DNA from: Oligoflexales bacterium
GTDB taxonomy: Bacteria; Bdellovibrionota_B; Oligoflexia; Oligoflexales; RGVZ01
Direction of reading: 5' to 3'
Length of the DNA stretch: 47,348 nucleotides
Assembly (NCBI GenBank): GCA_044236265.1
Contig: JBIIGV010000007.1
Coordinates: 1-47,348, forward strand
Part shown: positions 26,032-44,472 of the stretch, piece by piece
How the letters are laid out: the number at the start of each line of letters is the position of its first letter
How positions within the stretch are numbered: the stretch's first letter is position 1
The notes under the pieces: generated by a model
What the model was told of the DNA's origin: nothing
Seen by the model: only the letters and a program-made list of their open reading frames with translations
The model's database searches: none
Made by a program: the position numbers and the translations under genes

Positions 26032-28138
26032 TTCGATAGGTCCTATCAGAATTTTGTTCGATTGATTCCAACGCTGATGATGTCTCAATGGGCTGATTCG
26101 ACTCCAGGAAGTACATGCGTGCACCACCCTCTATTCGGTGACCATAGCGCGGATGAATTGTTGCTTCGGTGATGCCATCCGGTCTTTCGAACTGGGTTGG
26201 CGGCCTAATTGTAAATGAATTTCGGACAAATTGGTCCCATATGGGAAGTGCGACGCTACTTCCGGATGCGTTTGCGTAAATGGGGGCATGCTCGTCTGTT
26301 CCAACCCACACAATAGATACGAGGTTGGATGTGTAGCCACAAAACCAGTTGTCGGAGCTATCGTTGCTTGTACCTGTTTTGCCAGCAGCGTGGACTGCTA
26401 GGTCCGAGCTTTTCGCGGCGGTTCCACTGGTCAATACAGCTCGCATGCCCTGTGTCATTAAGTAGGCGATTTGTGCGTTTATGACTCTTTGAGTTCTGTG
26501 GTCTTCCGAGCTTCGCTCCCATAGAATGTCGCCATCGGCGTTCGTGATCTTTGTGATTGCGCTTGGCTCAGTTAGCATACCTTGATTAGCGTATGTCCCA
26601 TAAAGACGGGCCAAGTCGAGCATTGTAACATCGGAGGAGCCCAGGGCTGATCCGAACTCCTGCTTAATTGGTGATTTGATACCTAGTTTTTTGGCTCGGT
26701 CAATAATTGCCGGAAGACCAATCTTTGTTGCGATTTCGATGGTTGGGGAGTTCATCGAGCGGTAGAAGGCTCTCATCATCGTTGTTTCAGTAAGGTAGTC
26801 GTCCGATTGATTTTTAGGCCGATAATTTTCGATATTAATCGGTGAAACATAGATCATATCGCTCCATTTAAATCCGCGAAAGAGGGCCTCGGTGTAAACA
26901 ACCGGTTTGAATGCGGATCCTGGTGACCGCAGTGCGGAAGTTGTCCGGTTAAATTGTGACTTCCGATAATTTCGTCCTCCGACCATAGCGAGGATGTCGC
27001 CATTTTTCGGGTCGGTGACAAGCATTGAGGCTTCCACAGTTGCATTTTTTAAAAGTCCTGATTCCGGGTCTTTAATTTTGCCAGTTCGTTTCGATAGCTC
27101 ATTTAAGGGTTTGTCGTACCATCCTACAGAGCGCTCAGCTAGCGATTGCAGACGACTATTTAGTGTGGTGTAAATACGGAGACCGGTTGATTTCTTTAGT
27201 TGGGGAGTGGTGAGTTTAAGTTTTTTCATGAGATCAGCAACATAATCAACAAACCACGATGCTTTTTCGGTGTTGATGAACTTATATGGCTGATAAACGA
27301 GCTTTTGTGCTGCGATGGTTTTTGATTCACTTTCAGTAATTGTGCCATGTTTGCGCATAGCTTCGATCACCATGAGTTGTCGTTTTTTTGCCCGCTCTGG
27401 ATATTTGGCAGGATTGTAACGGCTTGGTGATTGGAAGAGACCTGCGATAAGTGCGCTCTCGGCAGCTGAAATATCTCGCATTTCTTTTCCAAAATAACGG
27501 TGTGCAGCTGCACCCACGCCATATGATCCATTGCCAAGAAACATAATATTGACATAAAGCTCTAGAATTTTCTCTTTACTCAGATGGCGTTCAACTTCCA
27601 GAGCCCAAGCGATTTCCTGAATTTTTCTCTCGATCGAACGCTCATTGTGTAAGATCGTATTTCTCACGAGCTGCTGGGTGATTGTGCTTCCGCCCTGGTT
27701 AAATGACTCTGATTTCAATCGCGAGACGATAACGCGAAGGATCGCGCGATAGTCAACTCCATGGTGGTCGAAGAAACTAGCATCCTCGATTCCCGTTAAT
27801 GCTTTAACGAAATGGTCCGGTAGCTCTTCAAAAGGTACGAAAACATGGTAGCGATCAAAGAATTCACCAATCTTTTTCTGATCACTGTCATAAACAATCG
27901 AATTGTCACGAAAGGAGTAATTTTCAAGGATTGAGATTCTTGATTTATCGAGGTTAAAGACGCCCAGGGCTTTCAGCCATAGGTAGATGCTTATGGTGCC
28001 TGCCAGTAACATGAGTGCAGAAAAAAGCAGAGATAATCGCAAAAACCTCATGGACCACGATGTTTTACCAGATTGCTCTGGAGTTTCCTCGGGTCCCGGT
28101 AGTACTGCCTTCATTTTCAACTTAGATTCTATTTCCAA
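26015..28138 (-). CDS. mrcA: Class A penicillin-binding protein (PBP1A family, transglycosylase + transpeptidase)
   Basis: EDASFFDHHGVD, GGSTITQQ, RKIQE; SAFK, SMN, KTGT; single N-terminal TM. Confidence 0.92.
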   Translation of the reverse strand: MEIESKLKMKAVLPGPEETPEQSGKTSWSMRFLRLSLLFSALMLLAGTISIYLWLKALGVFNLDKSRISILENYSFRDNSIVYDSDQKKIGEFFDRYHVFVPFEELPDHFVKALTGIEDASFFDHHGVDYRAILRVIVSRLKSESFNQGGSTITQQLVRNTILHNERSIERKIQEIAWALEVERHLSKEKILELYVNIMFLGNGSYGVGAAAHRYFGKEMRDISAAESALIAGLFQSPSRYNPAKYPERAKKRQLMVIEAMRKHGTITESESKTIAAQKLVYQPYKFINTEKASWFVDYVADLMKKLKLTTPQLKKSTGLRIYTTLNSRLQSLAERSVGWYDKPLNELSKRTGKIKDPESGLLKNATVEASMLVTDPKNGDILAMVGGRNYRKSQFNRTTSALRSPGSAFKPVVYTEALFRGFKWSDMIYVSPINIENYRPKNQSDDYLTETTMMRAFYRSMNSPTIEIATKIGLPAIIDRAKKLGIKSPIKQEFGSALGSSDVTMLDLARLYGTYANQGMLTEPSAITKITNADGDILWERSSEDHRTQRVINAQIAYLMTQGMRAVLTSGTAAKSSDLAVHAAGKTGTSNDSSDNWFCGYTSNLVSIVWVGTDEHAPIYANASGSSVALPIWDQFVRNSFTIRPPTQFERPDGITEATIHPRYGHRIEGGARMYFLESNQPIETSSALESIEQNSDRTYRNVFRH

Positions 28139-28172
28139 GTCTACGAATTCCTTTGAAGAAATTATGGTTGCT

Positions 28173-28199
28173 GTATCGGACGGCGTCGCCTTGCCTTTA
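28173..28199 (-). promoter_or_regulatory. sigma28-type promoter TAAA-N15-TCCGATAC
   Basis: Minus strand TAAAGGCAAGGCGACGCCGTCCGATAC, 35 nt upstream of TTG 28138. Confidence 0.7.
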
Positions 28200-28282
28200 C
28201 GCTACCATTCGGGTGCAACCGGAAGGCTGACCGTTAACCCACCGACATAATGGGGCTATTGCTTGACTTTGTCGAAATTGAC

Positions 28283-28309
28283 TAAGGAAATTCGAGTGGT
28301 TGCCGAAAC
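28283..28309 (+). promoter_or_regulatory. sigma28-type promoter TAAG-N15-GCCGAAAC
   Basis: TAAGGAAATTCGAGTGGTTGCCGAAAC, ~50 nt upstream of ATG 28361; divergent from the mrcA promoter. Confidence 0.6.
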
Positions 28310-28360
28310 GGACTACGAGGTTTGGGTCTGGTATCGATAACGGAGGGGGTCCTTTTGGTT

Positions 28361-29416
28361 ATGCAATTGCCATCTCGGGCGGTTAGTTTATTGCTGGTTT
28401 GCAAAAGTCGCAATGAAGGCAATCTACTGCGTCTCGCGATTGAAGAGTCTCTTTCTGGTTTACTAGCTGGTGTGTCTATTGTTCATGATGTTCAGGATGG
28501 GTTTGTATTCTACAAAGAGAAACATCCCGATCTCGTCGTTATTTGTGGTTTTGAAAGTGGGTTTTCGGAGGCGCTTACGATCAATATTCGTAGAGTTGAT
28601 GGCCGACGACACACGGGCGTCATAGTGATGGCTCCCGTAGACGAGAATCTCGAACAGACGTTTGCTAATAATTATCATGCAGGCGCAGATGATGTGATTA
28701 CGACAAATACAAGCATAACGATTCTAAAGTCAAAAATAATTGCTGTCATTAACCATAAGATTGCGGCAGACGAGTTGAGATCCGCTATTCATAAACTTGC
28801 TGAGATGAGCGTCACTGATGATCTAACCGGGCTTGCGAATATGCGTGGCTTTTTGAACAAGTTTCCAAAAACCATCCAAGGTTGTAGGGAGCATGGTCGG
28901 GGATTTGCTGTTTTAATGATGGATCTGGATCGATTCAAGATGATTAACGACACGATGAATCATCTTGTGGGCAGTTTTGTAATTAAATCAGTCGCTCGGA
29001 TTATTCGTCAGAAAGATCATCTGACCGAGGGTGATTATGCGGCTCGGTATGGTGGTGATGAGTATATCGTTGTCATTCACGATAATGATCTTGAACAATT
29101 GAATAAAAAAGCGGAATCGATTCGCGCCTGCGTACAAAAAGCGGAATTTTCATATCAAAAATTTGTAGCTAAGGTGACATGTAGCGTAGGTTTATGCTTC
29201 GTGCCCCCAGGGAGTACGATGAGCGGCGAAGAAGTGATAAAACTTGCTGACGCGATGCTGTATCGCAGCAAGGAAAAAGGTCGCAACCAAGTTCAGACAT
29301 TGAGGCTAGGGGATCCTGTTGATCTTGACCATGTTGGTCGGTCTAACCTGGTTGATGGGAATTCCCGCAGTGATGACGACAGTGTCGCCAGAGTTGACTA
29401 CGCCAAGGCCTTTTAG
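28361..29416 (+). CDS. Diguanylate cyclase with atypical receiver domain (GGDEY)
   Basis: DDLTGLAN, MDLDRFKMIND, ARYGGDEY, ADAMLYRSKEKGRN; N-terminal REC-like PDLVVI...AGADDVI; GGAGG RBS. Confidence 0.88.
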   Translation: MQLPSRAVSLLLVCKSRNEGNLLRLAIEESLSGLLAGVSIVHDVQDGFVFYKEKHPDLVVICGFESGFSEALTINIRRVDGRRHTGVIVMAPVDENLEQTFANNYHAGADDVITTNTSITILKSKIIAVINHKIAADELRSAIHKLAEMSVTDDLTGLANMRGFLNKFPKTIQGCREHGRGFAVLMMDLDRFKMINDTMNHLVGSFVIKSVARIIRQKDHLTEGDYAARYGGDEYIVVIHDNDLEQLNKKAESIRACVQKAEFSYQKFVAKVTCSVGLCFVPPGSTMSGEEVIKLADAMLYRSKEKGRNQVQTLRLGDPVDLDHVGRSNLVDGNSRSDDDSVARVDYAKAF

Positions 29417-30796
29417 AAGTTCAGGTAGCTGCTGAAGCAATTCATCCGTATTGTAAAATAGAGGGTTTTGCAGCCCATAGCATCCCCATATCAGGCTAAC
29501 ACGAGCAGCAACCTCCGGGCGTGGCGAAATGGCGATGACCGGAGTCTTGGGCCGCCACTTAGCCATGCTTCTTGCAATACTACCTGTCAATGTTAGCGCA
29601 ACGATCGCCTTTGCATTCAGAGAGTCTGCGGCTTCACATGCAGCCCTAGCAATTGCCTCGTGATCCTCCCAGTGTCGGGATCGATCAAGCTCATCCGTGG
29701 AATAGCGATCAGGACGTTTGAACGTCCAATGCTCAACCTCGCGAATGATATTCGCCATAGTCTTTACACATTCTACCGGGTATTTGCCCGAAGCGACCTC
29801 ACCGGAAAGCATGACACAGTCAGCACCATCAAGCACGCCGTTTGCAACATCTGCTACTTCGGCAAGAGTCGCTTGTGGATTTTCGATCATAGATTCCAGC
29901 ATTTGTGTTGCCACAATCACTGGTTTTGCATGACGTGCACCAGCTGCGAGTATCATCCGCTGGAATCCAGGGACTCGCTCTACGTTGCCCTCTACGCCCA
30001 AATCTCCACGAGCGACCATCAGACCATCAGCTGCTTGCGCAATTTCATCGATCGTTGCAATGGCTGGAAGCTTCTCAATTTTGGCGATAACTGGAATGTC
30101 GGAACCCATGGCTTTGATCATTTTCTTGATACCGTGGATATCGGCAGGGTCCTGCACAAAAGATAACGCAACATAGTCCACACCGTTTTGAATGCCGAAT
30201 AGAAGATCTCTGCTATCTTTTTCGGTCATTGCAGGCAAAGACAGCTTTGCATCTGGGAAGTTTACCCCTTTGCGAGGCTTCAATAGCCCACCATCTTCGA
30301 CGCGAACGATCACATTTTGACCTTTTATGTCCTCTATACGCAGAATGAAGTTGCCGTCGTCCATCATGACGCGTTGGCCGATGGATACATCTTTCACCAG
30401 GTCTTTGTAATCTATTGGGATGACTTTCGGGTCAGTTTGCTCGACACCAAAAACCAGCGTGTAGATTTCGCCTTTTTTGATCTCGATTCCGTTGTTGAGA
30501 AGTTTGCCGCAACGAATCTTTGGCCCTTGAAGATCTTGGAGTAAAGCAACCGGATGGCCTGTTTCTTCAGAGATGCGGCGAACCATGTCTATATTTTTTT
30601 TGTGAGTTTCGTAGTCTCCATGGCTGAAGTTGAGTCGGGCGATGTTCAGTCCCGAAAGAATCAATTCACGCAGGGTGTTCTCATTTGAAGATGAAGGGCC
30701 CAAGGTGCCAATGATTTTACAATGGCGAATTTCCTCGGCCGAGACGTTTTGAAAGTTTGGGAGTTTCAAGGAAGATGTCGCATTGACCTTTGACAT
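29306..30796 (-). CDS. pyk: Pyruvate kinase
   Basis: KIIGTLGP, ARLNFSHG, DLQGPKIR, MVARGDLGVE, ATQMLESM, DCVMLSGE; ATG 30796 after GAGAGG. Confidence 0.96.
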   Translation of the reverse strand: MSKVNATSSLKLPNFQNVSAEEIRHCKIIGTLGPSSSNENTLRELILSGLNIARLNFSHGDYETHKKNIDMVRRISEETGHPVALLQDLQGPKIRCGKLLNNGIEIKKGEIYTLVFGVEQTDPKVIPIDYKDLVKDVSIGQRVMMDDGNFILRIEDIKGQNVIVRVEDGGLLKPRKGVNFPDAKLSLPAMTEKDSRDLLFGIQNGVDYVALSFVQDPADIHGIKKMIKAMGSDIPVIAKIEKLPAIATIDEIAQAADGLMVARGDLGVEGNVERVPGFQRMILAAGARHAKPVIVATQMLESMIENPQATLAEVADVANGVLDGADCVMLSGEVASGKYPVECVKTMANIIREVEHWTFKRPDRYSTDELDRSRHWEDHEAIARAACEAADSLNAKAIVALTLTGSIARSMAKWRPKTPVIAISPRPEVAARVSLIWGCYGLQNPLFYNTDELLQQLPELLKGLGVVNSGDTVVITAGIPINQVRPTNMVKINRIP

Positions 30797-30994
30797 GGGT
30801 GGCCCTCTCGGTGGCTTACAAGATTCAAGACGCCTGATGGCGGGTCGGCCAACAAACGGGAGAAACATTAGTGCTTATGAAATGTTACACCTCTGGCAAC
30901 GGGACGTCAAAGCCAGGAGTCGTCACCATGGTGCTAATGCATCAGGTTTAAGCATCCGAAGGTAAACTGCGGGAATCATTGTATTGTCGGTGAC

Positions 30995-33900
30995 ATGGGC
31001 CTCCTTGGAGGAAGTGTGAGTAGCTCTTCAAATAGATTCACGGGTAAGTGGATCGGGCAGCGATACTGTATCGAGCAAGAGCTCGGTCGCGGTGGGATGG
31101 GTGCTGTTTATCGAGCTTTTCATGTCGATGACCCATCTAATGATGTTGCAATCAAGCTCATTCATCGAACCCAGAAAATGTCCTCAACTGATCTGCTCCG
31201 CTTTCAAAAGGAAGCGGCTCTGATGAGTCAGCTGTATCACTCCAACATTATTGCATTTCATGAGCTTGGAATATTCCAGGCCGAAGAGTCAAAGGACATC
31301 AGCCGCGGTTACTACATCGTGATGGATTATGCGCGCGGCAAGAATCTTAAAGAAAGTTTGGCGGATGATGGGCGGAAGGATCTGGCGTTTTTCTTTCAAG
31401 TAGGTCTCCAGGTCGCAGACGCTCTCGATTACACTCATGGTAAAAACATCATTCATCGCGATATCAAACCACAAAATATAATTATCAGTCAGGCTCCCGG
31501 TGATGAGCGCGGCGTTCATGTGCGTGTTCTTGATTTTGGTGTTGCACGCCTGGGTGATGTGATGGGGAGAGATGATGGCACTGCAGAAGAACGTGCGGGC
31601 ACTCCGATTTATATGGCGCCAGAGCAGACAGCCACTGGATTTGGAGTTTCTGATCATCGTGTTGATCTTTACTCTTTAGGGTGCGTTCTCTATGAGATCC
31701 TGACAGGGCACCCACCGTTTAGCGGGGATAATCGCGAGGCTCTCGAGCGCGCTCATCAGACATCCGAAGCGGAGCCGGTTCAAAGCATTAGACCCGATGT
31801 CCCTGGGGTTGTCTGTCAGATCATCCATAAGCTTCTAGCCAAGCGTCCTGATGAGCGTTACCAGACGGCCTTCTCATTATCTGCAGACTTGCTCCGAGCC
31901 AAAGCGTTGTGGGAGCAAAAACCTCGCAATGTTCCAACATTTCCCCTTGCACTCAAGGATGCATTCTTTGCTGTGTCAGCCCAGCTTCCGTTGCATGGAA
32001 GATCAGCTGAGATTGAGGCGATTCTTCATGAGTACAGCCAAGTCGCAGATGCTAAGGCACGGGGGCGGATCACCGTCGTCACGGGCGCGTCGGGTGTGGG
32101 GAAGACTCGCGTATTAAATGAGTTCAGGAGTAACCTTGCTGCGCGCAGGATTAAATTCCTGAGTGGAGTCTTCACACAGCATGAAAATGCATTGCCATTT
32201 AACGCCCTCGCAAATGCGTTTAACGAATTGCTGGTTAAAACTGCAAAGACATCTCCCGTCGATGCGGATGTGTTGTCTCGAAAAATTAAACAAATCATCG
32301 GTGCTGATGCGCATTTAGTGGCCGGCGTCGTTCCTGGTCTCAAGTCTTACCTTAATGACATTCCTGAGCCTGAAGATGGAACTGACATTGATGGTGAGAG
32401 ATATGCAAGATTTGCAAAAGCGTTTTCCGATTTTACGCGTTGCCTGGTTCCTGAGGCTCAGCCCTTGGTCATGATTCTAGATGACGTCCACTGGGCTGAT
32501 GAGAAAAGCCTGGGGCTCATTGACCAGTTCTTCTCCAATGCCAACTCTTTGCGCTTTCAATTGGTGATCGGCTGCAGAATGGATGCTGTGCAGGAGGGGA
32601 GTCCTTTTTGGCGATTTATTCAGAAGTTCCGTGGATTGAAACTTCGTTATGCAGAGGTCAACTTAAGTGCGCTATCTCTCGATGCGTCACGTTCTGTTGT
32701 AACGTCGCTGTTAAGGCAGTCTCAAGCGGTCTCTTCGGAGCTCGCTGAGCATTTGGTAGCAAAAAGTGGCGGGATACCAATGCGCCTTGTCGAGTTGACG
32801 CGTCGCTTGGTTGCTTTAGATATGATTCGTCTAAACAGACGAGATAAGGGCTGGGAGTACGATCTGTCAGAAATTCGTGCTGCTAAGATAAGCTTAACGG
32901 CAGTGGACTTAGTGTTAGGTCGGCTAACCGAATTCAAGGGTGCAGAGTTAACAATTCTGCGAACGGCTGCCAGTTGCGGCATGTCGTTCCAGTATGAGAC
33001 GTTACTTTTGCAGGGAAAGCAGCCAGCAACCGGCGTGGTTAAGTTGATTGAAAGAGCCATTGATGAAGGAATCATCGTCAGAGCTCCGGAGCCGCCCGGC
33101 CTTAAGCATTTGGGTAAGGCGTATCTTTTCGTGCATAAAAAAGTTCGCGATGCTCTCTATGATGTGATCGAACTAAACGAAAGGCGCTCACTTCATGGGG
33201 CTATTGCAAGGCAGTTAATGGAGGCAGTTGAAAAGCCCAAAGATCAGATGCTTTTTGCTATTGCCCAGCATTTAAACAAAAGTCGAGATCTATCGGCTTT
33301 GGATCCTGAAATTGAGCAGCAGGCATTAACGTTTAATATGAAGGCTGGTGACGCAATCCGGCTAAAGCAAGGGTGGACGGCTGCTAACAACTATTATCGG
33401 ATCGCTCTTGAGATAATTGACCAAAAGACGATTCCGAAGGTTGATCCTTCTATTCGACGAAAAATTATTGAGCGTCTTGCAGATGTTAATGCGGGCCAGA
33501 CAAACTTTAAAATTGCATTGCAACGTTATGCTGAATTGTTACAGCAGCCCATGTCAAAGTCGGAGTTTTCTTCAGCGGCTGCCAAAGCATCTCAGCTCCA
33601 TCTGGTTTGTGGAAATGTTTCTGAGTCTTTATCTTGGATTCGAAAAGGCTTGGAAGCGCGTGGTTTGCTGCTTCCAAAAATTGGTTGGCTCGATAGACTT
33701 AAGTTCTTTGTGGGTATGTTGACGGATGCTCTATTAGCAGGGAGCCCTGGGGCCCCCTTGGTGGCAGGTTTAAAGAAATGCTGGGCGGGACGTCAAAAAC
33801 TTGGGGATGGTGCTGATGTACATTTTTCACAGGCAAGACTTCGGTTTTTGTTGGCATTAGCATCCAGTCGACATGACCGGGCACTTTCTGAGTCTGCGCA

Positions 33901-36412
33901 TGCGGCTGCTCGTGGTGATGTTCTAGAGGGGCGCGCACCCGTTTCTGTAGCCATAAAGATTATTGCTGAGCGAGCTGGGCAGTTAGCATCCCTTGGGGCT
34001 ATCGGAAGTTCGTACAAGCTTTTTGATCTGGCCGATAAGATTAGTCGCCAAGGTGGGCTGCCTCGCGCCTCCGGTTACGTCTCCTTGACTCGTGCGATGA
34101 CGGTTGATTATGTGAAGGGTCGTCTTGATGATGTCGCGTTTCATGTGAAAGAGGCGTTCCAAAAAATCGATTCCGAGCAGGATCGGATCGCTTACGCTCA
34201 GCTTGTTGTGTTCAAGCAGTATCTGGAGCTTTTGGTTGGAAATTTTGATGCAGTCGAACAACTGAATTCCGAGGTTCGACTGACGGTACCTACACGCAAT
34301 TGGATTAGTCCGATGTCTATGTCTTTGCTGCTCTTCGGGCTTCTGCTGAGAGGGCGAAGGCAGCGACTGGTTAAAATTGGCGAGGATTATTTGCGTCGTC
34401 GGCGGGCTGTCGGTGGTCGCGAGGATCTATTTAGCAATATTGTGACGACGCTACTTGTTTTTGCTCGCGGAGAGGATGATCATGCCCGTGAGGGCTTTTC
34501 GAAAGTTGTAAAACAATTTGTTTACGCTCCACGTTCTGAAGTTCTTTCGGCTTGGCAGGAGGACTTTGTTGGGATGTTTTTGCTGGTGTTCCCGGTTTTC
34601 TTTGAGATGGAATACGGGAAGCAAGTTATGCGTAATGCTGAAATGTTCAGATGGCTTAGTTTGTTGGGCGAACGCCAGCCTTTTGCGACAAGGATTTTTC
34701 ACAGACGAACCGTACAGTCAATGATTAGAGCTCGATGTGGTGAGCTTGTCGGTTCTAAAAGCATCAGAAAAATTTATGATGACGCGTTGCGAGAGGCGAA
34801 GGTTGAGGGCAATATTCTTGTTCAGTCTCTTTGCTATTTATGGTTTGGAGCTCATCTGCTGAGTCGCGGGCAACGAAGTCGTTCTGATTATCTTGATCTA
34901 TCTCTGAAAATTGCTGATGAGAATGATTTGTCTGGACTGGTTTTCTATATACAGCGAGTTATGGAAAACTTGGGCGTTCAGCCGGCTGTCGAGCTCGTTC
35001 GGCCAGAGCTAGCCCAGTCTGATGTAGGCCCAGCTCTCGGTGTTTCTCTCGAGCTTGTCAGCCGACATCTGGATTTTTTGGTGTCGGCTGTTAATAATGA
35101 TTCTGAAAGTAGAGTTGACTTGAATGGCACTATCGATGTGCTGAAGTCGGTATATCCAGACTCGCCATATATGATTGTTCTGTCAGATGGCGTTAAGACG
35201 GATCCTGTGTTGCTTTCCACCCTGGGTGCGGCAGAATCTTCAGACATGTTGAAATCAGTTTTTCCTTATTTCACAATACGCTCGACGTTAGTTCTTCATC
35301 TGTCTGGATCCGGAATGACCATACGTGGCGATCAGACCGCTTATGGCGCAGAATCTTTGGAGAAGACTTTTGTTCCTGAAGAGGATCTGGGATCAACACA
35401 AGTATTACAAGCTAGTGGATCTGACTTAACGCTTCGACCTGAAATGTTCTCCTCGACCGGAGGTGTAGACAGCCCCGCGCGTAGTCAGTCTTCAAAGTCC
35501 ATATCCTCAGGCTCTATGCAGTGCTTGATTCCGATTCGTGCTGGTGGTGAAACCATAGGGCTGATTGTGATTACGGATATTGGCACTGATGCGCCGCAGG
35601 ATTTCCATTGGCTAAAGCGTGAATTTGATGCCATTGGTGCGCATGTGGGTTGGTTACTAGCGCAGAAGTTTCTTCCGCTACGCGATTATTTGGACAGCAC
35701 AGAGCGTGGAGTGCCCGCTGATTTGTCTGTTATGGGTGGTGTTTATTTTGAGCCAGCTCCATGGCTGGATATCCAGTTGGTTGGGAGCCTTCGAAAAGAA
35801 CGTGAAGCTAGCTGGTATCTCGGTCTGAAGTGGGGCAACACACAATATCTTGTAGTCTACTGTTGTGTGAAGGGCGATGTCTTGGAGAGAGACCGTTTTG
35901 CCGCTTTATTGATGTATCAGGTGTTTATAACCCGCGAAATGATCAATATGCTTGGTCAGGCGCGTAGCGAGGTCACTGATGTTCGAATATTCCTTCAAGG
36001 TGTACTCAACTCAAGTGGTCTGGCAGGCCGTATGGATGAGATTCTTTTTGCATATAGTCTATTTGAAAAGGATGGCGATATTGTTGCATCCGGTCATTAC
36101 GGTCAGGCGCGTCCAGTCGTGCTAGGCGTAGAGAATCGAGTCACGGCATTTAATCAGGCGTCTCTGCGCATGCGGGACGGTCGGGATTTGCGTTATTGGG
36201 AGGTTTTTGCTCCCATGGGACAAGACAATGTATTCCTCGTCAGCTATGATACCAGTCGAATCGATGGCGGAGCAAAGATGTTTATGACGGCAGCGGGTAA
36301 GCGAAGTCAGGCCATGGCACAGTCAAAGTCTGCTACCAAATTACTTGAAACCGCGGTACAAGATAAGTTGCTTCCGCGTTATTATGTTGCGATTACAAGG
36401 CGTGTTGCGTGA
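30995..36412 (+). CDS. Hanks Ser/Thr kinase - STAND/AAA ATPase - helical/TPR-like - GAF-like - degenerate SpoIIE/PP2C multidomain protein
   Basis: GRGGMG, VAIK, HRDIKPQN, DFG, YMAPE; Walker A GASGVGKT, Walker B ILDDVHWAD; SMQCLIPIRAGGETIGLIVI GAF-like strand pair; C-terminal SpoIIE-like pattern. Confidence 0.88.
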   Translation: MGLLGGSVSSSSNRFTGKWIGQRYCIEQELGRGGMGAVYRAFHVDDPSNDVAIKLIHRTQKMSSTDLLRFQKEAALMSQLYHSNIIAFHELGIFQAEESKDISRGYYIVMDYARGKNLKESLADDGRKDLAFFFQVGLQVADALDYTHGKNIIHRDIKPQNIIISQAPGDERGVHVRVLDFGVARLGDVMGRDDGTAEERAGTPIYMAPEQTATGFGVSDHRVDLYSLGCVLYEILTGHPPFSGDNREALERAHQTSEAEPVQSIRPDVPGVVCQIIHKLLAKRPDERYQTAFSLSADLLRAKALWEQKPRNVPTFPLALKDAFFAVSAQLPLHGRSAEIEAILHEYSQVADAKARGRITVVTGASGVGKTRVLNEFRSNLAARRIKFLSGVFTQHENALPFNALANAFNELLVKTAKTSPVDADVLSRKIKQIIGADAHLVAGVVPGLKSYLNDIPEPEDGTDIDGERYARFAKAFSDFTRCLVPEAQPLVMILDDVHWADEKSLGLIDQFFSNANSLRFQLVIGCRMDAVQEGSPFWRFIQKFRGLKLRYAEVNLSALSLDASRSVVTSLLRQSQAVSSELAEHLVAKSGGIPMRLVELTRRLVALDMIRLNRRDKGWEYDLSEIRAAKISLTAVDLVLGRLTEFKGAELTILRTAASCGMSFQYETLLLQGKQPATGVVKLIERAIDEGIIVRAPEPPGLKHLGKAYLFVHKKVRDALYDVIELNERRSLHGAIARQLMEAVEKPKDQMLFAIAQHLNKSRDLSALDPEIEQQALTFNMKAGDAIRLKQGWTAANNYYRIALEIIDQKTIPKVDPSIRRKIIERLADVNAGQTNFKIALQRYAELLQQPMSKSEFSSAAAKASQLHLVCGNVSESLSWIRKGLEARGLLLPKIGWLDRLKFFVGMLTDALLAGSPGAPLVAGLKKCWAGRQKLGDGADVHFSQARLRFLLALASSRHDRALSESAHAAARGDVLEGRAPVSVAIKIIAERAGQLASLGAIGSSYKLFDLADKISRQGGLPRASGYVSLTRAMTVDYVKGRLDDVAFHVKEAFQKIDSEQDRIAYAQLVVFKQYLELLVGNFDAVEQLNSEVRLTVPTRNWISPMSMSLLLFGLLLRGRRQRLVKIGEDYLRRRRAVGGREDLFSNIVTTLLVFARGEDDHAREGFSKVVKQFVYAPRSEVLSAWQEDFVGMFLLVFPVFFEMEYGKQVMRNAEMFRWLSLLGERQPFATRIFHRRTVQSMIRARCGELVGSKSIRKIYDDALREAKVEGNILVQSLCYLWFGAHLLSRGQRSRSDYLDLSLKIADENDLSGLVFYIQRVMENLGVQPAVELVRPELAQSDVGPALGVSLELVSRHLDFLVSAVNNDSESRVDLNGTIDVLKSVYPDSPYMIVLSDGVKTDPVLLSTLGAAESSDMLKSVFPYFTIRSTLVLHLSGSGMTIRGDQTAYGAESLEKTFVPEEDLGSTQVLQASGSDLTLRPEMFSSTGGVDSPARSQSSKSISSGSMQCLIPIRAGGETIGLIVITDIGTDAPQDFHWLKREFDAIGAHVGWLLAQKFLPLRDYLDSTERGVPADLSVMGGVYFEPAPWLDIQLVGSLRKEREASWYLGLKWGNTQYLVVYCCVKGDVLERDRFAALLMYQVFITREMINMLGQARSEVTDVRIFLQGVLNSSGLAGRMDEILFAYSLFEKDGDIVASGHYGQARPVVLGVENRVTAFNQASLRMRDGRDLRYWEVFAPMGQDNVFLVSYDTSRIDGGAKMFMTAAGKRSQAMAQSKSATKLLETAVQDKLLPRYYVAITRRVA

Positions 36413-37311
36413 ATTCACAGAGCTTCATCGACGACTTGCTTCAAAGCAAGAAATTTTTATTGGTCACCGGTAAGGGTGGCATCGGTAAAACATTGCTCAC
36501 TTGTGCTCTAGCCAAAAGAGCTGAGGCGCTGGGACGGCGGGTTTTGGTTGTAGAGCAATCTGCGGTAGAGCAGGTGGGGCCGCTACTTGGCCTGAAAGAT
36601 ATTGGCCACGAAGAGCTCTGGTCGGGGAATCTCGGGGCTGCGAATTTTACGGCAGGTGGAAACTTCCGAGACTTTATAACAAAGCACCTGATGAAGTCGT
36701 CTCTGTTGGACGTGATTCTATCAAATAAGATAGTTCATAGCTTTTTTACCACAATACCTGGCTTCGCCGAGTTAATGCTTTTAGGACGAATCTACTATGC
36801 AATGAACGAGTCCCCGAAGCTGCGTCCTGATTTGATTATTATGGACGCATACGCATCTGGTCACTTCATGAGTTTGATGACCACACCGGATGCCGTGCTG
36901 AAGTCCGGTTTGGCCGGACCAATTGTTCGATTAACAACGATGGTTAGAGATTGGCTCGCCGACTCAAAACTTTGCGGCACGATCTATGTTGGTATACCCG
37001 AGGAACTCGTTGTTAACGAAACTCTTGATTTTTTGCCACAGCTAATCGCGAGGTCTCCAGTTGCGCTGAGTGCGGTTGTGATGAATCGCTGTCTGACATC
37101 CTTAAATGCAAATGGTTCGCGGTCGGCTGCATTTTCATTCTTGGATGAAAGGCTGAGGCGGCAGGCGGCTGCTTTGTCCAGGTTTGCAGAAAGCAAGGCT
37201 CAAAGTGATAAATTACGTTTATTGCCCCTGATTCTCTTGCCTGAGCTTGGATCAATTTCAGAGCCACTGGATGAGACAACGGTATCGAGACTATTCGGAG
37301 GAGCGTCATGA
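36409..37311 (+). CDS. ArsA/Get3-family ATPase, subunit A (BagA/Rv3679-like)
   Basis: GKGGIGKT; VVEQ in place of xDP; TIPGFAEL; DAYASGH; PEELVVNET; GTGA overlap with kinase stop. Confidence 0.85.
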   Translation: MNSQSFIDDLLQSKKFLLVTGKGGIGKTLLTCALAKRAEALGRRVLVVEQSAVEQVGPLLGLKDIGHEELWSGNLGAANFTAGGNFRDFITKHLMKSSLLDVILSNKIVHSFFTTIPGFAELMLLGRIYYAMNESPKLRPDLIIMDAYASGHFMSLMTTPDAVLKSGLAGPIVRLTTMVRDWLADSKLCGTIYVGIPEELVVNETLDFLPQLIARSPVALSAVVMNRCLTSLNANGSRSAAFSFLDERLRRQAAALSRFAESKAQSDKLRLLPLILLPELGSISEPLDETTVSRLFGGAS

Positions 37312-38435
37312 CTGACTCTGTAGGTAGTAAGTCCCGTACGACAATTATTGAAGGATCGCCGGTTGAGAGAATGCTTAAAAGCCAGCGTGTCGTCATCGTG
37401 ATTGGAGCCGGAGGGGTTGGCAAGACGACGTCATCGGTAGCTTTGGCAATTCACGGAGCTCGACTAGGAAGGCGCGTAGCGCTTCTTAGTATTGACCCCG
37501 CAAAGCGTCTTGCGGCTGCTTTGGGGATTGAGTTGGGCCATGAACTGCGGCCAGTCGTGTTTCCTGAATCAAGCGGTATCAAGGGTGTATTGCACGCTGC
37601 AATGTTGGATCAAAAGGCTGTCTTCGACAGCATGGTTCGTAAGCATGCTCCCTCTCCCCATATTGCGGATAAGATACTGCGAGACCCATTGTACATATCA
37701 GCATCTACAAACCTCAGTGGCCCGCTGGAGTACATGGCGTTGGCTCGACTGCAGGAGTTATCAGAGAGCCCTGACTGGGATTTGATTGTTTTGGATACAC
37801 CGCCGGATTCCCATGCTTTGGACTTTTTGGCTAGACCCAATGTTTTGTCGGCTTTTGTAGATAACAAGGTCATGAGTCGCTTGCTCAAGCCTATTGTTAT
37901 GGCCGGACGGATTGGTCTTGGCGGAGTGGCCTCAATTAGTGAGAAGGTTTTAGGTGGAGTAACGAGTATCACTGGATTTGGAGCACTGCGAAGCTTCGGA
38001 GAGTTTATCTTGCTGATGCAGGAAGTCATCGAGGGCTTCCATCGTTCTGGTGAAAGGGTTTTGGAAATTCTTCGCCGTGAATCAACAAGTTTTGTGCTGG
38101 TTTGCGTTCCTCAGAAGGCTGCCGCTCGGGCCGCAGGCGCGCTCAGCAATGAATTGCGCCAGATGGGGTATGCGCTTGATGGAGCTGTTTTTAACAGATG
38201 TCTCCCACGTCCCGTCATTGACGACCTTAAAAAGAATTCTGCAGATGAACTGACGATTCTTAGAGCTCGCGCCAAATCAGAAGATTCAATCATTGAAAAT
38301 TTGGCTGAGGAAATCCACGGTAACCAGGAGTCTGCAAGCATTTGGCAGCTTCGGGTGGATGAACAGACTGATGACATACACTCGATTGTCGGAATTTTGA
38401 AGTTCTCGGAGCTTTTTGGACGCTCGATAACCTGA
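37308..38435 (+). CDS. ArsA/Get3-family ATPase, subunit B (BagB/Rv3680-like)
   Basis: GAGGVGKTT; SIDPAKRLAAALG; EYMALARL; LDTPP; ATGA overlap. Confidence 0.88.
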   Translation: MTDSVGSKSRTTIIEGSPVERMLKSQRVVIVIGAGGVGKTTSSVALAIHGARLGRRVALLSIDPAKRLAAALGIELGHELRPVVFPESSGIKGVLHAAMLDQKAVFDSMVRKHAPSPHIADKILRDPLYISASTNLSGPLEYMALARLQELSESPDWDLIVLDTPPDSHALDFLARPNVLSAFVDNKVMSRLLKPIVMAGRIGLGGVASISEKVLGGVTSITGFGALRSFGEFILLMQEVIEGFHRSGERVLEILRRESTSFVLVCVPQKAAARAAGALSNELRQMGYALDGAVFNRCLPRPVIDDLKKNSADELTILRARAKSEDSIIENLAEEIHGNQESASIWQLRVDEQTDDIHSIVGILKFSELFGRSIT

Positions 38436-38548
38436 TGTCTCAAGTTCGATCAAACTGGGCAGCTTGTGCCTAGTGTCCTATGGCAGCTATCCCGGATACA
38501 ATAACTATTGGAAATATATAGTTTATTGTAAAGCGAGGTTTCCGGGGC

Positions 38549-39364
38549 ATGGCGAGATTGTTGGCGAGTACCTGGCGAGAAACGTTACTGGTAGATCCAG
38601 TAAGCGCGATTGGAAAAATTGCGCTGCAGCGCCTTCACGATCTCGGTGCCTACGGCCTCTACCTCTACGAGATTGCAAAGCAAACTGTTCAGCGTCCCAT
38701 GCGCTGGGAGCTTATTTTCCAACAGTTGGAATTCATTGGAAATCAATCGCTTAATATTATCCTGCTCACCGGTTTTTTTACTGGCGCTGTATTTGCCCTG
38801 CAGATTGGTGGCATTTTCCAGATTTTCCGCGCTGAGAGTATTATGGGAGCTGCAACGGCAAAGGCACTCACCAGAGAAATGGCGCCGTTAATGACGGCGT
38901 TTCTTCTGACTGGACGTGCCGGGTCAGCCATGACCGCTGAAATTGCCACTATGCGTGTTAACGAGCAAGTTGATGCGATGGAAGCGATGGCTGTTGATCC
39001 AATCAATTACCTTGTTGTGCCGCGCACGATTGCAGCGATGATGATTATTCCGTTGTTGTGTGGTGTGTTTATTTTTATCGGAACATTTGGCGCTTTCACG
39101 ATGGGCGTGGCGGTTTTCGACGTGGACGTCGGGATTTTCATTGATCGGATTAAATGGCTTGTTGAACCCCGTGACATTATGAATGGTTTGGAAAAGGCTT
39201 TTATTTTCTCGATCATCATTTCGACGATGGCATGTCGATACGGGTTGCATGCAAGTGGTGGTGCAAAGGGCGTTGGCCGTGCGACGACGATGTCGGTTGT
39301 GACGACGCTTCTCATTATTTTGCTTTGTGATGTTGTAATCACTTACGTCCAATTGAGGTTGTGA
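38549..39364 (+). CDS. mlaE: MlaE-family ABC permease
   Basis: REMAPLMTAFLLTGRAGSAMTAEIATMRVNEQVDAMEAMAVDP, GVGRATT. Confidence 0.93.
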   Translation: MARLLASTWRETLLVDPVSAIGKIALQRLHDLGAYGLYLYEIAKQTVQRPMRWELIFQQLEFIGNQSLNIILLTGFFTGAVFALQIGGIFQIFRAESIMGAATAKALTREMAPLMTAFLLTGRAGSAMTAEIATMRVNEQVDAMEAMAVDPINYLVVPRTIAAMMIIPLLCGVFIFIGTFGAFTMGVAVFDVDVGIFIDRIKWLVEPRDIMNGLEKAFIFSIIISTMACRYGLHASGGAKGVGRATTMSVVTTLLIILLCDVVITYVQLRL

Positions 39365-39366
39365 TT

Positions 39367-40125
39367 ATGGGATCTATCATTGAGTTCAAGAATGTGACTA
39401 AAAAATTCAATAAGCGAGCAGTTCTCGACCATCTCGACATTTCCATTCCAAGAGGAAAAATCACCTTTATAGTCGGCAAATCAGGCGAAGGTAAATCGGT
39501 GACCATTAAACACATTATGGGACTTCTGAAGCCTGATGAAGGACGTATTGTCGTCAACGGAGAGGACATCACTGATTTTGAGGACGAACAACTTCGAGAA
39601 TACAGAAAGAAGTTCGGTATGCTCTTTCAACATGCCGCTCTTTTTGATTCGATGACTGTTGGGCAGAATGTGATTTTTCCGCTGAAAGAGCACACGAACA
39701 TGCCCCTTGCGGAGATGCTCAAGCGGGTAGAGAGGGTGCTTGAGCAGGTTGGACTTCCCAATATGCAGCACAAATACCCAACGGAACTGTCGACAGGCGA
39801 GAAAAAGCGAGTGGGGCTTGCACGAGCTTTGGTCTCAAAGCCGGAGATTATCCTTTATGACGAGCCAACAACGGGCATGGATCCGTTGGTGTCAGAAATG
39901 ATTGATGAGCTGATAGTTCATGTAAATAAGGAAATTCAGGGGATCACCTCGATTGTGATTTCCCATGACTTAAAAGCTGCCCTGGGCACTGCCGAATATA
40001 TTGTTTTTTTGTACAAAGGCAAGGTTGCGTTGGCGGGATCCCCAGAAGACTTCAAAACGACAAAGGATCCGGTCGTAAGACAGTTTTTTAGCGGAAAAGT
40101 TTCCGGTCCAATGGAGTTTTTATGA
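39367..40125 (+). CDS. mlaF: MlaF/Mkl-family ABC ATPase
   Basis: GKSGEGKS, LFQHAALFDSMTVGQN, variant signature LSTGE, YDEPTTGMDP, ISHD; alt start GTG 39361. Confidence 0.92.
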   Translation: MGSIIEFKNVTKKFNKRAVLDHLDISIPRGKITFIVGKSGEGKSVTIKHIMGLLKPDEGRIVVNGEDITDFEDEQLREYRKKFGMLFQHAALFDSMTVGQNVIFPLKEHTNMPLAEMLKRVERVLEQVGLPNMQHKYPTELSTGEKKRVGLARALVSKPEIILYDEPTTGMDPLVSEMIDELIVHVNKEIQGITSIVISHDLKAALGTAEYIVFLYKGKVALAGSPEDFKTTKDPVVRQFFSGKVSGPMEFL

Positions 40126-40156
40126 AATTACCATGATGAAGCTCATGGTGTGCGAC

Positions 40157-40183
40157 TAAAGACGCGATTGATTGTTCCGATGA
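40157..40183 (+). promoter_or_regulatory. Internal sigma28-type promoter TAAA-N15-TCCGATGA for mlaD
   Basis: TAAAGACGCGATTGATTGTTCCGATGA, 27 nt upstream of ATG 40211. Confidence 0.7.
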
Positions 40184-40210
40184 ATTGAAGGCCAAATTGG
40201 AGAGCCGGGT

Positions 40211-41704
40211 ATGTGGAAACAAATGGGAACAGAGTTTAAGGTAGGGGTGTTCACGATTGTGGCCCTCTTCACGCTCGGCTATATGCTCTTCGTGCTGAAT
40301 CCCAATCTCTTAAAAGATACGACTCGCAAGCAGTATTACACTGTTCTAAAGGACGCTGCAGGAATCATTCCTAAAACTCACGTTAAGACCAACGGTGTTA
40401 CCATCGGGAAAGTTAAAGCGGTAGAGTTGGATATCAATAACACGCGCATAGTCGTAGAGATTGATTCCCATGTGAAGCTTCCCGTTGGGAGTAAAATCGA
40501 GGTTAGAACCCGAGGCTTGTTGGGTGATGTTTATCTGGAAATCATTCGTGTAGAAGATACCGGGCAGTTCATTCCAGAGGGTGGCTTAATCCCGAAATCT
40601 GAAGATCAACTCGATATGCAGGGCGTCATGTCACTTCTGGGTAATATTGGCAAAGACGTCAAAAAAATAACTGGTACGATTTCAAATGTTGTCGGTAACG
40701 ACGAAGGCGAGTCGTCACTGCGCAACATCCTCGACAATATTGAAACTCTGACAGCCGATTTGCGCTCCACAGGTGCGTCGATTCGAGGCGCTATTGGCGA
40801 TAATCCAGATTCTATGAAGAATATTGTCATGAACCTTGATAAGTCTCTTGGTAACCTTAAAAAAATCACTGGCACCCTCGGGGATGTTCTGGATGACTCA
40901 AATAAAGAGCGTCTCAACCGTATTATTGCATCTTTTGACGACAGCATGAGTGAAGTTAAAAGTGCGACGAAGAACATACGACTGATTAGTGAGAAAATCG
41001 AGAAGGGCGAGGGCACGATCGGAAAACTTGTGAACGACGATGCCGCTATTCACGAGATTGAGTCAGCCGTTAAAGAACTACGTCAGGTCCTATCGCCGGC
41101 CACGAAGATGCAGTTAATTGTTGATACGCATGGAGAGGGGCGAGCCGACAGAAGCGGGCAGACCTATTTTAACGTTATTTTCAAAACCCGTCCGGACCGT
41201 TTTTATCTCGTTGGTATGACTGACGGGCAGGAGAACATTCGTGATACAACGACCGAGGACTTGGCCGATGTTCCTGCAGGCGAAAACGCGCCTGCAACAT
41301 CTAAGAGTCGCGAGCGCATTACGGAGCGTAAGTCGATACGTTTCAATTTGCAATTGGCGAAGCGCTGGTACTTCGTGACGGCTCGTCTCGGGTTGTTTGA
41401 AAGCACTGGTGGTGGCGCTGTGGATATGCATTTTTTCCGCGACCGGATCAGACTCTCTCTTGAAGCCTTTGACTTCAAGACCTACGATAACGAATGGCGC
41501 AGAGTCGCCCGTTTGAAGGCTTACTTACAAGTTCTGTTCTTTGATCATATCTACTTAATGGCGGGCGTCGACGACATTACTCGCAAGAAAAATCCGAGAA
41601 CCTACGAGGAGCAAAGAGGTCCAGTACCGTTTGGCGGTCTCGGACTTGCCTTTAACGATCAGGATTTGAAAGCCCTATTTGGCGCAGCTGCATTAGCTCG
41701 CTAA
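40211..41704 (+). CDS. mlaD: Long MlaD/MCE protein: TM, MCE domain, helical region, beta-rich C-terminal domain
   Basis: EFKVGVF TM, VKTNGVTIGKV, GLLGDVYLEI; GEGTIGKLVND; C-terminal amphipathic strands (RFNLQLAKRW, ARLGLFESTGG). Confidence 0.88.
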   Translation: MWKQMGTEFKVGVFTIVALFTLGYMLFVLNPNLLKDTTRKQYYTVLKDAAGIIPKTHVKTNGVTIGKVKAVELDINNTRIVVEIDSHVKLPVGSKIEVRTRGLLGDVYLEIIRVEDTGQFIPEGGLIPKSEDQLDMQGVMSLLGNIGKDVKKITGTISNVVGNDEGESSLRNILDNIETLTADLRSTGASIRGAIGDNPDSMKNIVMNLDKSLGNLKKITGTLGDVLDDSNKERLNRIIASFDDSMSEVKSATKNIRLISEKIEKGEGTIGKLVNDDAAIHEIESAVKELRQVLSPATKMQLIVDTHGEGRADRSGQTYFNVIFKTRPDRFYLVGMTDGQENIRDTTTEDLADVPAGENAPATSKSRERITERKSIRFNLQLAKRWYFVTARLGLFESTGGGAVDMHFFRDRIRLSLEAFDFKTYDNEWRRVARLKAYLQVLFFDHIYLMAGVDDITRKKNPRTYEEQRGPVPFGGLGLAFNDQDLKALFGAAALAR

Positions 41705-42589: not shown

Positions 42590-43603
42590 ATGAATCGAAA
42601 TGCTATTCCATCCTGGCTTCGTCCAACCAAAGCAAAAATTTTGACATCACTTCTTGCTCTCAGCGGGCTTATGGGATTTGCCTCCGTGGCGATCTCTGCC
42701 GAAGATTTGACTCAATCATCGCAGGCTACGGCTACATCTCAGACGGCTGAGTCGGCTGTAGTTGCAGATGAAATTTCCAACGGTTCTGTGATTGATTTGG
42801 GTGAGGGTTTATCGATTGCACCCATCGCGGGCTGGAAAATTGAGCGCAAGTCCATGGGCATGTCCCTTGTGATGAAGGAAGTATTGCCTCCTCAGACTGG
42901 AGAGATCGATTATTCTAAGCCCGTATTTGCGAGAAATCTGACACTTTTGACGATGAATCAAGCGCGACCGATTGACGAGGCAGCCGTTGCTGAGTTGAAA
43001 GGTGAAGTCTCGAAAATGTATTCAAAAGGGCTTGCTTCATCAGATTTGACATTCACCGATCACAAGTTTTTTGACTACAAGGGCAAGGGTGATGGGTTGA
43101 TTTTGTTCTCGCAGTTTACGCTAAACAACTATCAGATGATGCAAATGCAGGTTGTTGTTTCTGGCGACTCTAAATCCTATTTGATGACGTATACCGATTT
43201 GGCAAGCAACTTTGCAAATCCAGCAAGCTACGAAGCCGCTTGGAAATCCATGACATCGATTCAAGTTTCCGGCGTTGCTCCTAAGCGTTACCACAAAGAG
43301 ATGATGATGGGTGGTATGTTTGCCGCTGCTTTGTTTGCAATTATCTTCCCGTTCGTGCTCGTTCGTTGGTCAAATGCTCGTCGTCTGCGTAAGTTCGCAG
43401 CGGAGCTCCAGTATGATTGGGACACTGGCGCTTCTAAGTCAGATGTTGATTACCAGTTGAGTGATTTCCATGTGCTTGACCAAACCCGTCCAGTTCAGAA
43501 AATGGCAAAGGCTAAAAGATCTGAGTCCAAAAGTTTTGATATCGATGTCAGCTCCCTGAGTCACGTAAGCGCTATCAGCACGCGGCATAGCCGCTTTGCT
43601 TGA
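42590..43603 (+). CDS. Hypothetical exported/membrane protein (PsbP/DcrB-like core suspected, C-terminal TM and cytoplasmic tail)
   Basis: GAGGTGA RBS; signal peptide; P..GW start of domain; TM GGMFAAALFAIIFPFVLV. Confidence 0.65.
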   Translation: MNRNAIPSWLRPTKAKILTSLLALSGLMGFASVAISAEDLTQSSQATATSQTAESAVVADEISNGSVIDLGEGLSIAPIAGWKIERKSMGMSLVMKEVLPPQTGEIDYSKPVFARNLTLLTMNQARPIDEAAVAELKGEVSKMYSKGLASSDLTFTDHKFFDYKGKGDGLILFSQFTLNNYQMMQMQVVVSGDSKSYLMTYTDLASNFANPASYEAAWKSMTSIQVSGVAPKRYHKEMMMGGMFAAALFAIIFPFVLVRWSNARRLRKFAAELQYDWDTGASKSDVDYQLSDFHVLDQTRPVQKMAKAKRSESKSFDIDVSSLSHVSAISTRHSRFA

Positions 43604-43659: not shown

Positions 43660-44472
43660 TTATTTTGGGATAACAACTTCAATACTCGTATCGCTGATTT
43701 CTTCGGGCACACCTGCAACGATGGGAAGTGCTGGCGCGGTTTGCAATTTGGCTAGGTTGCCGTCAAAGATTGCGCCGTTAGGCCAGCTGCCTACGAAGAA
43801 TTCGGATCCACACTGCACCATGAGTTTGCCGCACTGGGTCCTTGCAGCATCAGCCTTGGTGACATTTGCAAAGCTACATGTCCCTGCGTTCGGTACCTGT
43901 TGGACGTCAAGCTTCGTCACGTTATTGGCTAACGACGGTTGGCATGAAATTGAGCAGGTGCAAAGCCCCGAAAATGCTTTTGGTCCGGTGACAGGGACCT
44001 CTAGCTGCCAGACGGTGGAGGCTGGAACTCCCTGGATTGATGGTGGCGTTGAATACAATTGCTGGACAAAAGCCACGCCCGACAGTTTTCCGGAGTCACT
44101 GTTAATCGCAATTCTTCGGGCGTCGTACAATAAGCCTGGGTCTGAGAACCAGCTGGCAACGCCGACGTCAGCCTTGTCTGCAAGCACTTTCAAGTCACAA
44201 CGATCGTCTTTTCTCAGGTTTTGAGTCATGAAGTTGACGAGGTTTTCCGTGCCTTTCGTTCCGGAGGTGTTTCCGGCACCACAGCCCGAAAGCGTGTAAA
44301 CCAACTCTGACCGGGCCAAATCAGCATCTTTCATGCCCACGACTTTAATTTCAACACCTACGGGGTCTCCGGGGTTGGTCTGGGGTCTCAGGCCCGTGCG
44401 GCAGGAAGATAATGCGGCAGCTAATATCACTGCAACCGAAGTCATCTTCATGTGGTCAACTTTATGGAACAT
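43660..44472 (-). CDS. Hypothetical Cys-rich lipoprotein
   Basis: GGGAGG RBS; VILAAALSSC lipobox; CTCSISC cluster. Confidence 0.72.
   Translation of the reverse strand: MFHKVDHMKMTSVAVILAAALSSCRTGLRPQTNPGDPVGVEIKVVGMKDADLARSELVYTLSGCGAGNTSGTKGTENLVNFMTQNLRKDDRCDLKVLADKADVGVASWFSDPGLLYDARRIAINSDSGKLSGVAFVQQLYSTPPSIQGVPASTVWQLEVPVTGPKAFSGLCTCSISCQPSLANNVTKLDVQQVPNAGTCSFANVTKADAARTQCGKLMVQCGSEFFVGSWPNGAIFDGNLAKLQTAPALPIVAGVPEEISDTSIEVVIPK

Follow-up and report, generated by a model that had tools for sequence, protein, structure and literature searches.

Gene content of the locus

The window analyzed here, a 47,348-nt contig (JBIIGV010000007.1, assembly GCA_044236265.1) of a 3.25-Mb Oligoflexales genome that is 88.7% complete, carries a row of six genes, all read directly from the window sequence on the + strand. 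The row opens with a giant Ser/Thr kinase of 1805 aa (30995..36412), in which the kinase domain is followed by a STAND-type ATPase, a helical (TPR-like) region, a GAF domain and a PP2C/RsbU fold. Two ATPase genes come next, a bagA-like ATPase A (36409..37311, 300 aa; PF02374; best NCBIfam model BagA) and a bagB-like ATPase B (37308..38435, 375 aa; PF02374; NCBIfam BagB). The row ends with the permease gene mlaE (38549..39364; PF02405, E 7.5e-72; TIGR00056 over its cut-off), the ABC ATPase gene mlaF (39367..40125; PF00005; best NCBIfam model MlaF, below its cut-off) and a long mlaD (40211..41704). In Pfam families the order is Pkinase with AAA_16, ArsA_ATPase twice, MlaE, ABC_tran and MlaD. In our analysis the row resolves into three modules, each of a known kind and separable from the others: a giant sensor kinase, a pair of Get3-like ATPases of BagA/BagB type and a membrane-spanning lipid transporter of three parts.

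The gene spacing given in the initial annotation is confirmed by the sequence. The kinase and ATPase A genes overlap by GTGA (36409-36412) and the two ATPase genes by ATGA (37308-37311), while 113 nt lie between ATPase B and mlaE and 85 nt between mlaF and mlaD. Of two candidate mlaF starts, 39361 and 39367, the ATG at 39367, 2 nt past the mlaE stop, is probably the one used, as close relatives encode an MlaF of 252 aa. A promoter and terminator scan of the window is uninformative, giving 22 and 18 sites where shuffled sequences give 14.7 and 13.5; it places no site on the + strand within 38436-38548. The same gene row is present in record L114, where ATPase B is 56% identical, and its recurrence across the class shows that the row is more than chance.

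An ATPase pair with divided catalytic motifs

The genes bagA and bagB are adjacent, in that order, and each encodes a single-domain Get3-like protein. The best structure match of ATPase B is 6BS3_B (Rv3680/BagB; E 1.4e-78, next-best 8.9e-36). For ATPase A, 6BS3_A (Rv3679/BagA; E 8.5e-32) ranks first among PDB chains that pass in one stretch; the two-domain 5ZME outscores it in summed score but has no single stretch that passes. Both proteins score below the cut-offs of NCBIfam models that are named for the mycobacterial proteins (ATPase A against BagA, 55 bits with a cut-off of 400; ATPase B against BagB, 223.9 bits with a cut-off of 521), and our claim is therefore limited to the pair being, as judged from sequence, distant relatives of BagA/BagB (Rv3679/Rv3680).

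In Get3, the signature lysine of Walker A crosses to the partner subunit, and the attacking water is held in line by the switch I aspartate (PMC10248533). These two residues are divided between the subunits of the pair. BagA has the signature lysine, K22, in 40/40 class sequences and 112/112 outside the class, and is without a switch I Asp-Pro. BagB has the switch I aspartate, D63, in all 40 class sequences, with DP in 138/138 outside, and the signature lysine (position 34) in none (0/40 in the class, 0/137 outside). The identical split occurs in the Mycobacterium locus L174. From this division, which has no exception among some 180 loci, a single working ATP site is predicted; BagA and BagB are likely to form an obligate heterodimer in which that site is the only complete one. 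In 11 of the 40 BagA sequences, from rows of other orders, the motif reads GKGGVGRT, the canonical Walker A lysine being replaced by arginine and the trans-acting lysine kept, which fits decay of a non-catalytic site.

The subunits also differ in the region that binds clients. The switch II-to-strand span is 53-54 aa in BagA and 105-112 aa in BagB, so that a long hydrophobic insert is found in BagB alone. Hu 2019 may have reported this difference between the subunits before. The role of bacterial Get3 is given as unclear in PMC6593721, and bagAB mutants are reported to have altered citrate, glycerol/NO, streptomycin and rifampicin survival, with function unsettled (PMC10597346, PMC12216072).

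A minimal MlaEFD bridge

The proposal that mlaEFD encodes a minimal trans-envelope bridge is supported by the structure predicted for MlaD. The model runs from an N-terminal helix through an MCE domain and a helical stalk (133-298, low confidence) to a C-terminal barrel of ~10 strands, which resembles 10-stranded membrane barrels. This mlaD is the sole MCE gene found in the genome. The absence of ars and mla accessory genes, also part of the initial annotation, holds for ars, mlaA and mlaC among the 33 of 69 window ORFs covered by the Pfam scan. In the 88.7%-complete genome, MlaA and MlaC were likewise not found; MlaB was not searched for.

A minimal MlaEFD with a long MlaD is described in PMC10665443 as an ancestral, widespread and self-sufficient core. 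By analogy with the Veillonella system of that report, phospholipid trafficking and an outer-membrane location of the barrel may be expected here. A new kind of Mla system was considered and rejected, as an MlaEFD-only bridge is already published there, and the MlaD of this class may already be listed in Supplementary Dataset 1 of the same paper. A second mlaE (G000:C191:20070-20909; L092:8071-8910) is 53% identical to that of the window and overlaps a transglycosylase-like gene, with no mlaF or mlaD alongside; it might make the permease a heterodimer.

Conservation of the row across the class

The class set comprises 130 genomes, probably Oligoflexia, and the phylum-level set is the same 130; the loci compared are those of kin and are not independent. 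Within it, 112 genomes have bagB, 126 have mlaD and 75 match the profile of the kinase C-terminus. The synteny check put forward by the initial annotation, that kinase, pair and mlaEFD stay together in relatives, succeeds for one junction and fails for the other: bagB is linked to mlaE in 90 of 99 testable genomes from two orders, and the kinase was not found in the other orders. The figure of 90 comprises 86 genomes with bagB and mlaD linked by coordinates and four (G031, G097, G101, G123) with mlaE before the contig end; 13 bagB genomes were set aside because of contig ends or were not examined. Family f19 of the other orders has a spacing of -4 to +8 nt between bagB and mlaE in 15/18 loci, which favours a single transcript.

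The tatA gene (PF02416) stands directly before bagA in 28/34 loci of the window's order outside its own genus and in 17/20 loci of other orders, and in 0/12 within the genus. The ancestral row is tatA-bagA-bagB-mlaEFD.

The same survey shows where the row comes apart. The pair and mlaE lie apart in nine genomes of several families (G010, G013, G021, G025, G035, G036, G044, G060, G061; mla side inspected for all but G021). In six further genomes that are 91-94% complete bagB was not found, and the row reads tatA-mlaEFD in four (G048, G024, G039, G127) and kinase-tatA-mlaEFD in two (G034, G045). Read from 20 chosen loci, each junction of the proposed three-part system is disrupted repeatedly while the remaining parts stay in place. 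Such naturally occurring losses and relocations show Mla and the kinase to be independent of the pair. Three genomes of genus g15 carry a second bagAB copy (L069, L070, L071) in unrelated surroundings, 3/3 without these neighbours.

Position of the kinase

The kinase is confined to one order. Its C-terminal profile has no match in 36 genomes of other orders, including 33 with bagB. Among 79 genomes of the window's own order, it lies within 3.5 kb of bagB in 53, further away in 2 and on another contig in 12, and it was not found in 12. It was not found in 13/16 genomes of family f12, most of which still have the pair and mla. In genus g3 it is on another contig in 7/7 genomes, and in the one examined (G015) it was relocated along with the pyk, GGDEF and pbp genes. 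G031, G049, G059 and G042 have lost the kinase, and in them pyk lies directly next to bagA. All three modules are linked by coordinates in 40/112 bagB genomes.

A kinase/bagA gap of -4 to +37 nt is seen in 11/12 genomes of the window's genus. The GTGA overlap found here probably arose when this genus lost the intervening tatA, and translational coupling of kinase and bagA as an ancient link is rejected, tatA lying between them in most relatives. Another tatA lies beside speD in 10/13 genomes of the genus. This speD-linked copy (L294-L303) is differently worded from the class-type copy before bagA, with an MGSMSIVHW start, which suggests that it is a replacement of the latter. An apparent absence of tatA from the window genome (G000) was not accepted, as contig C70 breaks off within speD, behind which tatA lies in this genus.

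Catalytic motifs of the kinase domain are intact in 28 aligned sequences, and the AAA_16 ATPase downstream retains Walker A and B, as in STAND-type fusions. The C-terminus has a GAF domain and, at window 35720-36412, a PP2C/RssB-like (PP2C/RsbU) fold, with nothing over cut-off in Pfam. At the presumed PP2C/RsbU motif positions, the metal-binding residues are mostly lost: the "YD" aspartate alone is kept (26/28), and the other positions read SWYL, YCC and PRYY. With its conserved surface motifs GRDLRYWEV and LPRYY, this domain is probably a protein-binding pseudophosphatase. Fusions of kinase, GAF and HisK, and of PP2C and kinase, are on record in PMC1262709; a literature search for the present architecture found no paper.

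Conservation controls

Conservation of adjacent genes was gauged within and between orders. Within the order, the divergent and unrelated pyk is kept in 28/41 loci, against 29/47 for the kinase. Between orders, 800 kb of G124 were compared with G000, giving 187 one-to-one matches, with nine contig-edge pairs set aside. Adjacent pairs are kept in 25/41 cases when co-oriented within 50 nt, in 2/13 at 51-600 nt, in 0/11 when divergent and in 0/4 when convergent. A scan of 38 proteins from kept pairs shows mostly single-pathway operons (nuo, gsp, pdh, guaBA, rplM-rpsI, prkA-yhbH-spoVR). About four kept pairs join unrelated functions, around rnhB, obgE and ribH. The deep conservation of bagB-mlaE thus indicates operon membership, which raises the likelihood of a shared process without proving it.

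Neighbourhoods outside the class

Outside the class, mlaE or mlaD beside bagB occurs in 0/155 loci, among the matches listed and with up to three genomes counted twice. These comprise 78 named loci (mostly Actinobacteria, among the matches listed), 30 from the phylum of G130, 30 from that of G132 and 17 from that of G131. They were found by tblastn and HMM searches, with Bdellovibrio and its kin outside the survey; flanks cover up to 8 kb on each side for named loci and 1.5 kb for the others, with 20 loci of the G132 phylum widened to 10 kb.

A PBP1-type gene lies near the pair in 39/80 named loci, among the matches listed, and no tatA was seen near the pair in actinobacterial loci. In the G132 phylum (L325-L344), a PhaR-type (PF07879) gene is directly upstream of bagA in 17/20 widened loci, and tatA lies one gene beyond, two genes upstream of bagA, in 11/20. 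The shared neighbour of the pair across phyla is tatA and not mla. In 4/30 of the shorter loci (L134, L223-L252 set), a coiled-coil ORF, phasin-like by eye, takes the place of the PhaR-type gene. Among myxobacteria-related loci, a TPR protein follows bagB in nine (L126, L160, L176, L197, L201, L203, L204, L206, L219) and a GlmU-like gene in five others.

Interpretation of the row

We consider it probable that the locus is a row of envelope genes that are transcribed together but form separable modules, and not a new kinase-controlled system. In this reading, tatA-bagA-bagB-mlaE-mlaF-mlaD would be an old envelope row of the class, probably one operon, whose modules work separately. MlaEFD would serve as the cell's lipid bridge, with MlaF-driven MlaE moving phospholipid along an MlaD anchored by its barrel in the outer membrane; the architecture of this step is taken from the model and its function from Veillonella. 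BagA and BagB would share a single site, built from the P-loop and aspartate of BagB and the lysine of BagA, beside a one-sided hydrophobic cleft. Most likely the pair would hold hydrophobic cargo in an ATP-driven cycle; the motifs are read from the sequences, the dimer and its cargo being putative. The kinase would belong to a pbp-GGDEF-pyk-kinase block that came to lie upstream in one order and would act as an independent sensor, and its overlap with bagA, given the distribution of tatA, would have followed only from the loss of that gene. Separability of the modules is supported by the bagAB deletions, the pair-mlaE separations, the restriction of the kinase to one order, a retention of the unrelated pyk similar to that of the kinase, the 0/155 outside loci, among the matches listed, with mlaE beside bagB, the second bagAB copies and the excess of mlaD (126) over bagB (112).

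Four considerations weigh against this reading. The bagB-mlaE link is both deep (90/99) and tight, as the f19 gaps show. Most pairs kept between orders are true single-pathway operons, and more loosely spaced pairs are kept only in 2/13 cases. An accessory protein may act on a transporter even though some lineages lose or relocate it. Finally, neighbours of the pair elsewhere are often lipid- or granule-related, and include a PhaR-type regulator, a ketoacyl synthase, hydrolases and a thioesterase.

BagAB may be a non-essential chaperone for small or single-span envelope proteins, covering the one membrane helix of TatA, and possibly the MlaD anchor, until insertion; we regard this as unlikely. 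The most widely shared neighbour is tatA, found in both class orders and in the 11/20 loci of another phylum, and the long hydrophobic insert of BagB suits such a role, although BagA has no insert and the groove would be one-sided. TatA is not tail-anchored, which counts against this reading. Furthermore, tatA stays in the six genomes that have lost bagAB, the window's genus keeps bagAB yet has a different tatA beside speD, and actinobacterial loci have no tatA near the pair. Get3 relatives are nonetheless described as binding membrane helices in PMC6593721 and PMC10248533.

A broader form, of comparably low probability, is that BagAB acts as an ATP-driven hydrophobic-cargo carrier for its own operon, handling TatA and MlaD helices or passing lipid to MlaEF, with the kinase as a possible later regulator. 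If true, this would provide the first clients for an orphan bacterial Get3-like family and a new accessory of the ancestral Mla bridge.

More doubtful still is that BagAB specifically carries lipid or fatty-acyl cargo through the cytoplasm, to or from MlaEFD in the inner membrane, and so replaces the missing accessory subunits of that complex. The class-wide adjacency and near-overlap of bagB and mlaE, the failure to find MlaA or MlaC in the genome and the lipid-related neighbours in other lineages are in its favour, but mlaEFD occurs without bagAB in six genomes and apart from it in nine, and the link is seen in none of the 155 outside loci, among the matches listed. The cargo of Mla ends in the inner membrane and does not call for a carrier in the cytoplasm. 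A lipid-sized molecule co-purified with a plant Get3d, although the authors doubt a primary lipid site (PMC10248533), and MlaEFD is described as self-sufficient (PMC10665443). The arrangement advanced in the initial annotation, one new system in which a ligand-sensing STAND kinase would phosphorylate and thereby switch BagAB and MlaEFD, is very improbable and is not sustained: despite linkage of the three modules in 40/112 bagB genomes, intact kinase motifs and a small kinase/bagA gap in 11/12 genomes, the kinase was not found in 36/36 other-order and 13/16 f12 genomes, moved with pyk in G015 and is kept without bagAB, lost between kinase and mlaE, in G034 and G045, and its overlap with bagA is secondary to the loss of tatA.

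As separable modules, the genes provide a modest clue to the role of the ATPase pair in a known family and not a new system. What is new is the class-wide tatA-bagAB-mlaEFD row, together with evidence on which of its junctions are loose. ATPases of BagA/BagB type occur widely, and the class-wide, tightly coupled position of the pair between tatA and the sole MCE bridge names candidate clients for them. The suggestion that this linkage was undescribed stands in part: no paper linking Get3 or BagAB genes to mla was found by a literature search whose reach did not extend to supplementary data, while the MlaEFD-only bridge itself is published (PMC10665443).

Flanking genes

Upstream of the kinase, an LppC-like lipoprotein, a PBP1, a GGDEF/response-regulator-like protein and pyruvate kinase (24487-30868) form a conserved block with it; the GGDEF and pyk ORFs are convergent and overlap by ~100 nt in many relatives. 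Downstream of mlaD, two proteins (42590-43603 and 43660-44472) have no Pfam match and keep their place in many genomes of the order.

Comparison with known systems

The kinase resembles HstK-type dual kinases and the TOMM kinase/cyclase TIGR03903 in its N-terminal Hanks kinase, AAA_16 ATPase and late GAF domain. It differs in its output, a degenerate PP2C/RsbU fold in place of a histidine kinase or cyclase, and in being essentially single-copy and limited to one order.

The pair shares PF02374 and the SIMIBI fold with ArsA, but here two genes (300 + 375 aa) replace the two-domain fusion. The 40-row alignments of either ATPase contain no invariant or nearly invariant cysteine that could serve as an ArsA metalloid ligand, and at the site of DTAPTGH, which we take as the ArsA reference motif, the sequences read DAYASGH and DTPPDSH. 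No ars family was found among the scanned ORFs, and the neighbours in relatives are tatA, mla and the kinase. On these grounds, separate genes among them, an arsenic pump is rejected, and the BagA/BagB-like assignment of the initial annotation is upheld by the 6BS3 matches, the split motifs and the lack of ArsA hallmarks. Eukaryotic Get3/TRC40 is a homodimer with two complete sites, a Zn-binding CxxC and a client-binding insert on both subunits, whereas here the motifs are split over two genes, no cysteine is conserved and the insert is long in BagB and short in BagA.

The transporter resembles the minimal MlaEFD of Veillonella parvula (Grasekamp 2023, PMC10665443) in its mlaE-mlaF-mlaD cluster, with no MlaA or MlaC found, and in the build of MlaD, where long helices connect an N-terminal helix and MCE domain to a membrane barrel at the C-terminus. 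It differs in the second, unlinked mlaE on contig C191 and in the bagAB genes, with tatA in most relatives, that precede mlaE. The closest likeness of the ATPases is to BagA/BagB (PDB 6BS3-6BS5; NCBIfam NF053622/NF053621), with which they share two adjacent single-domain genes, the same gene order and the same motif split, while their neighbours are tatA and mlaEFD in place of the PBP1-type gene of 39/80 named loci, among the matches listed.

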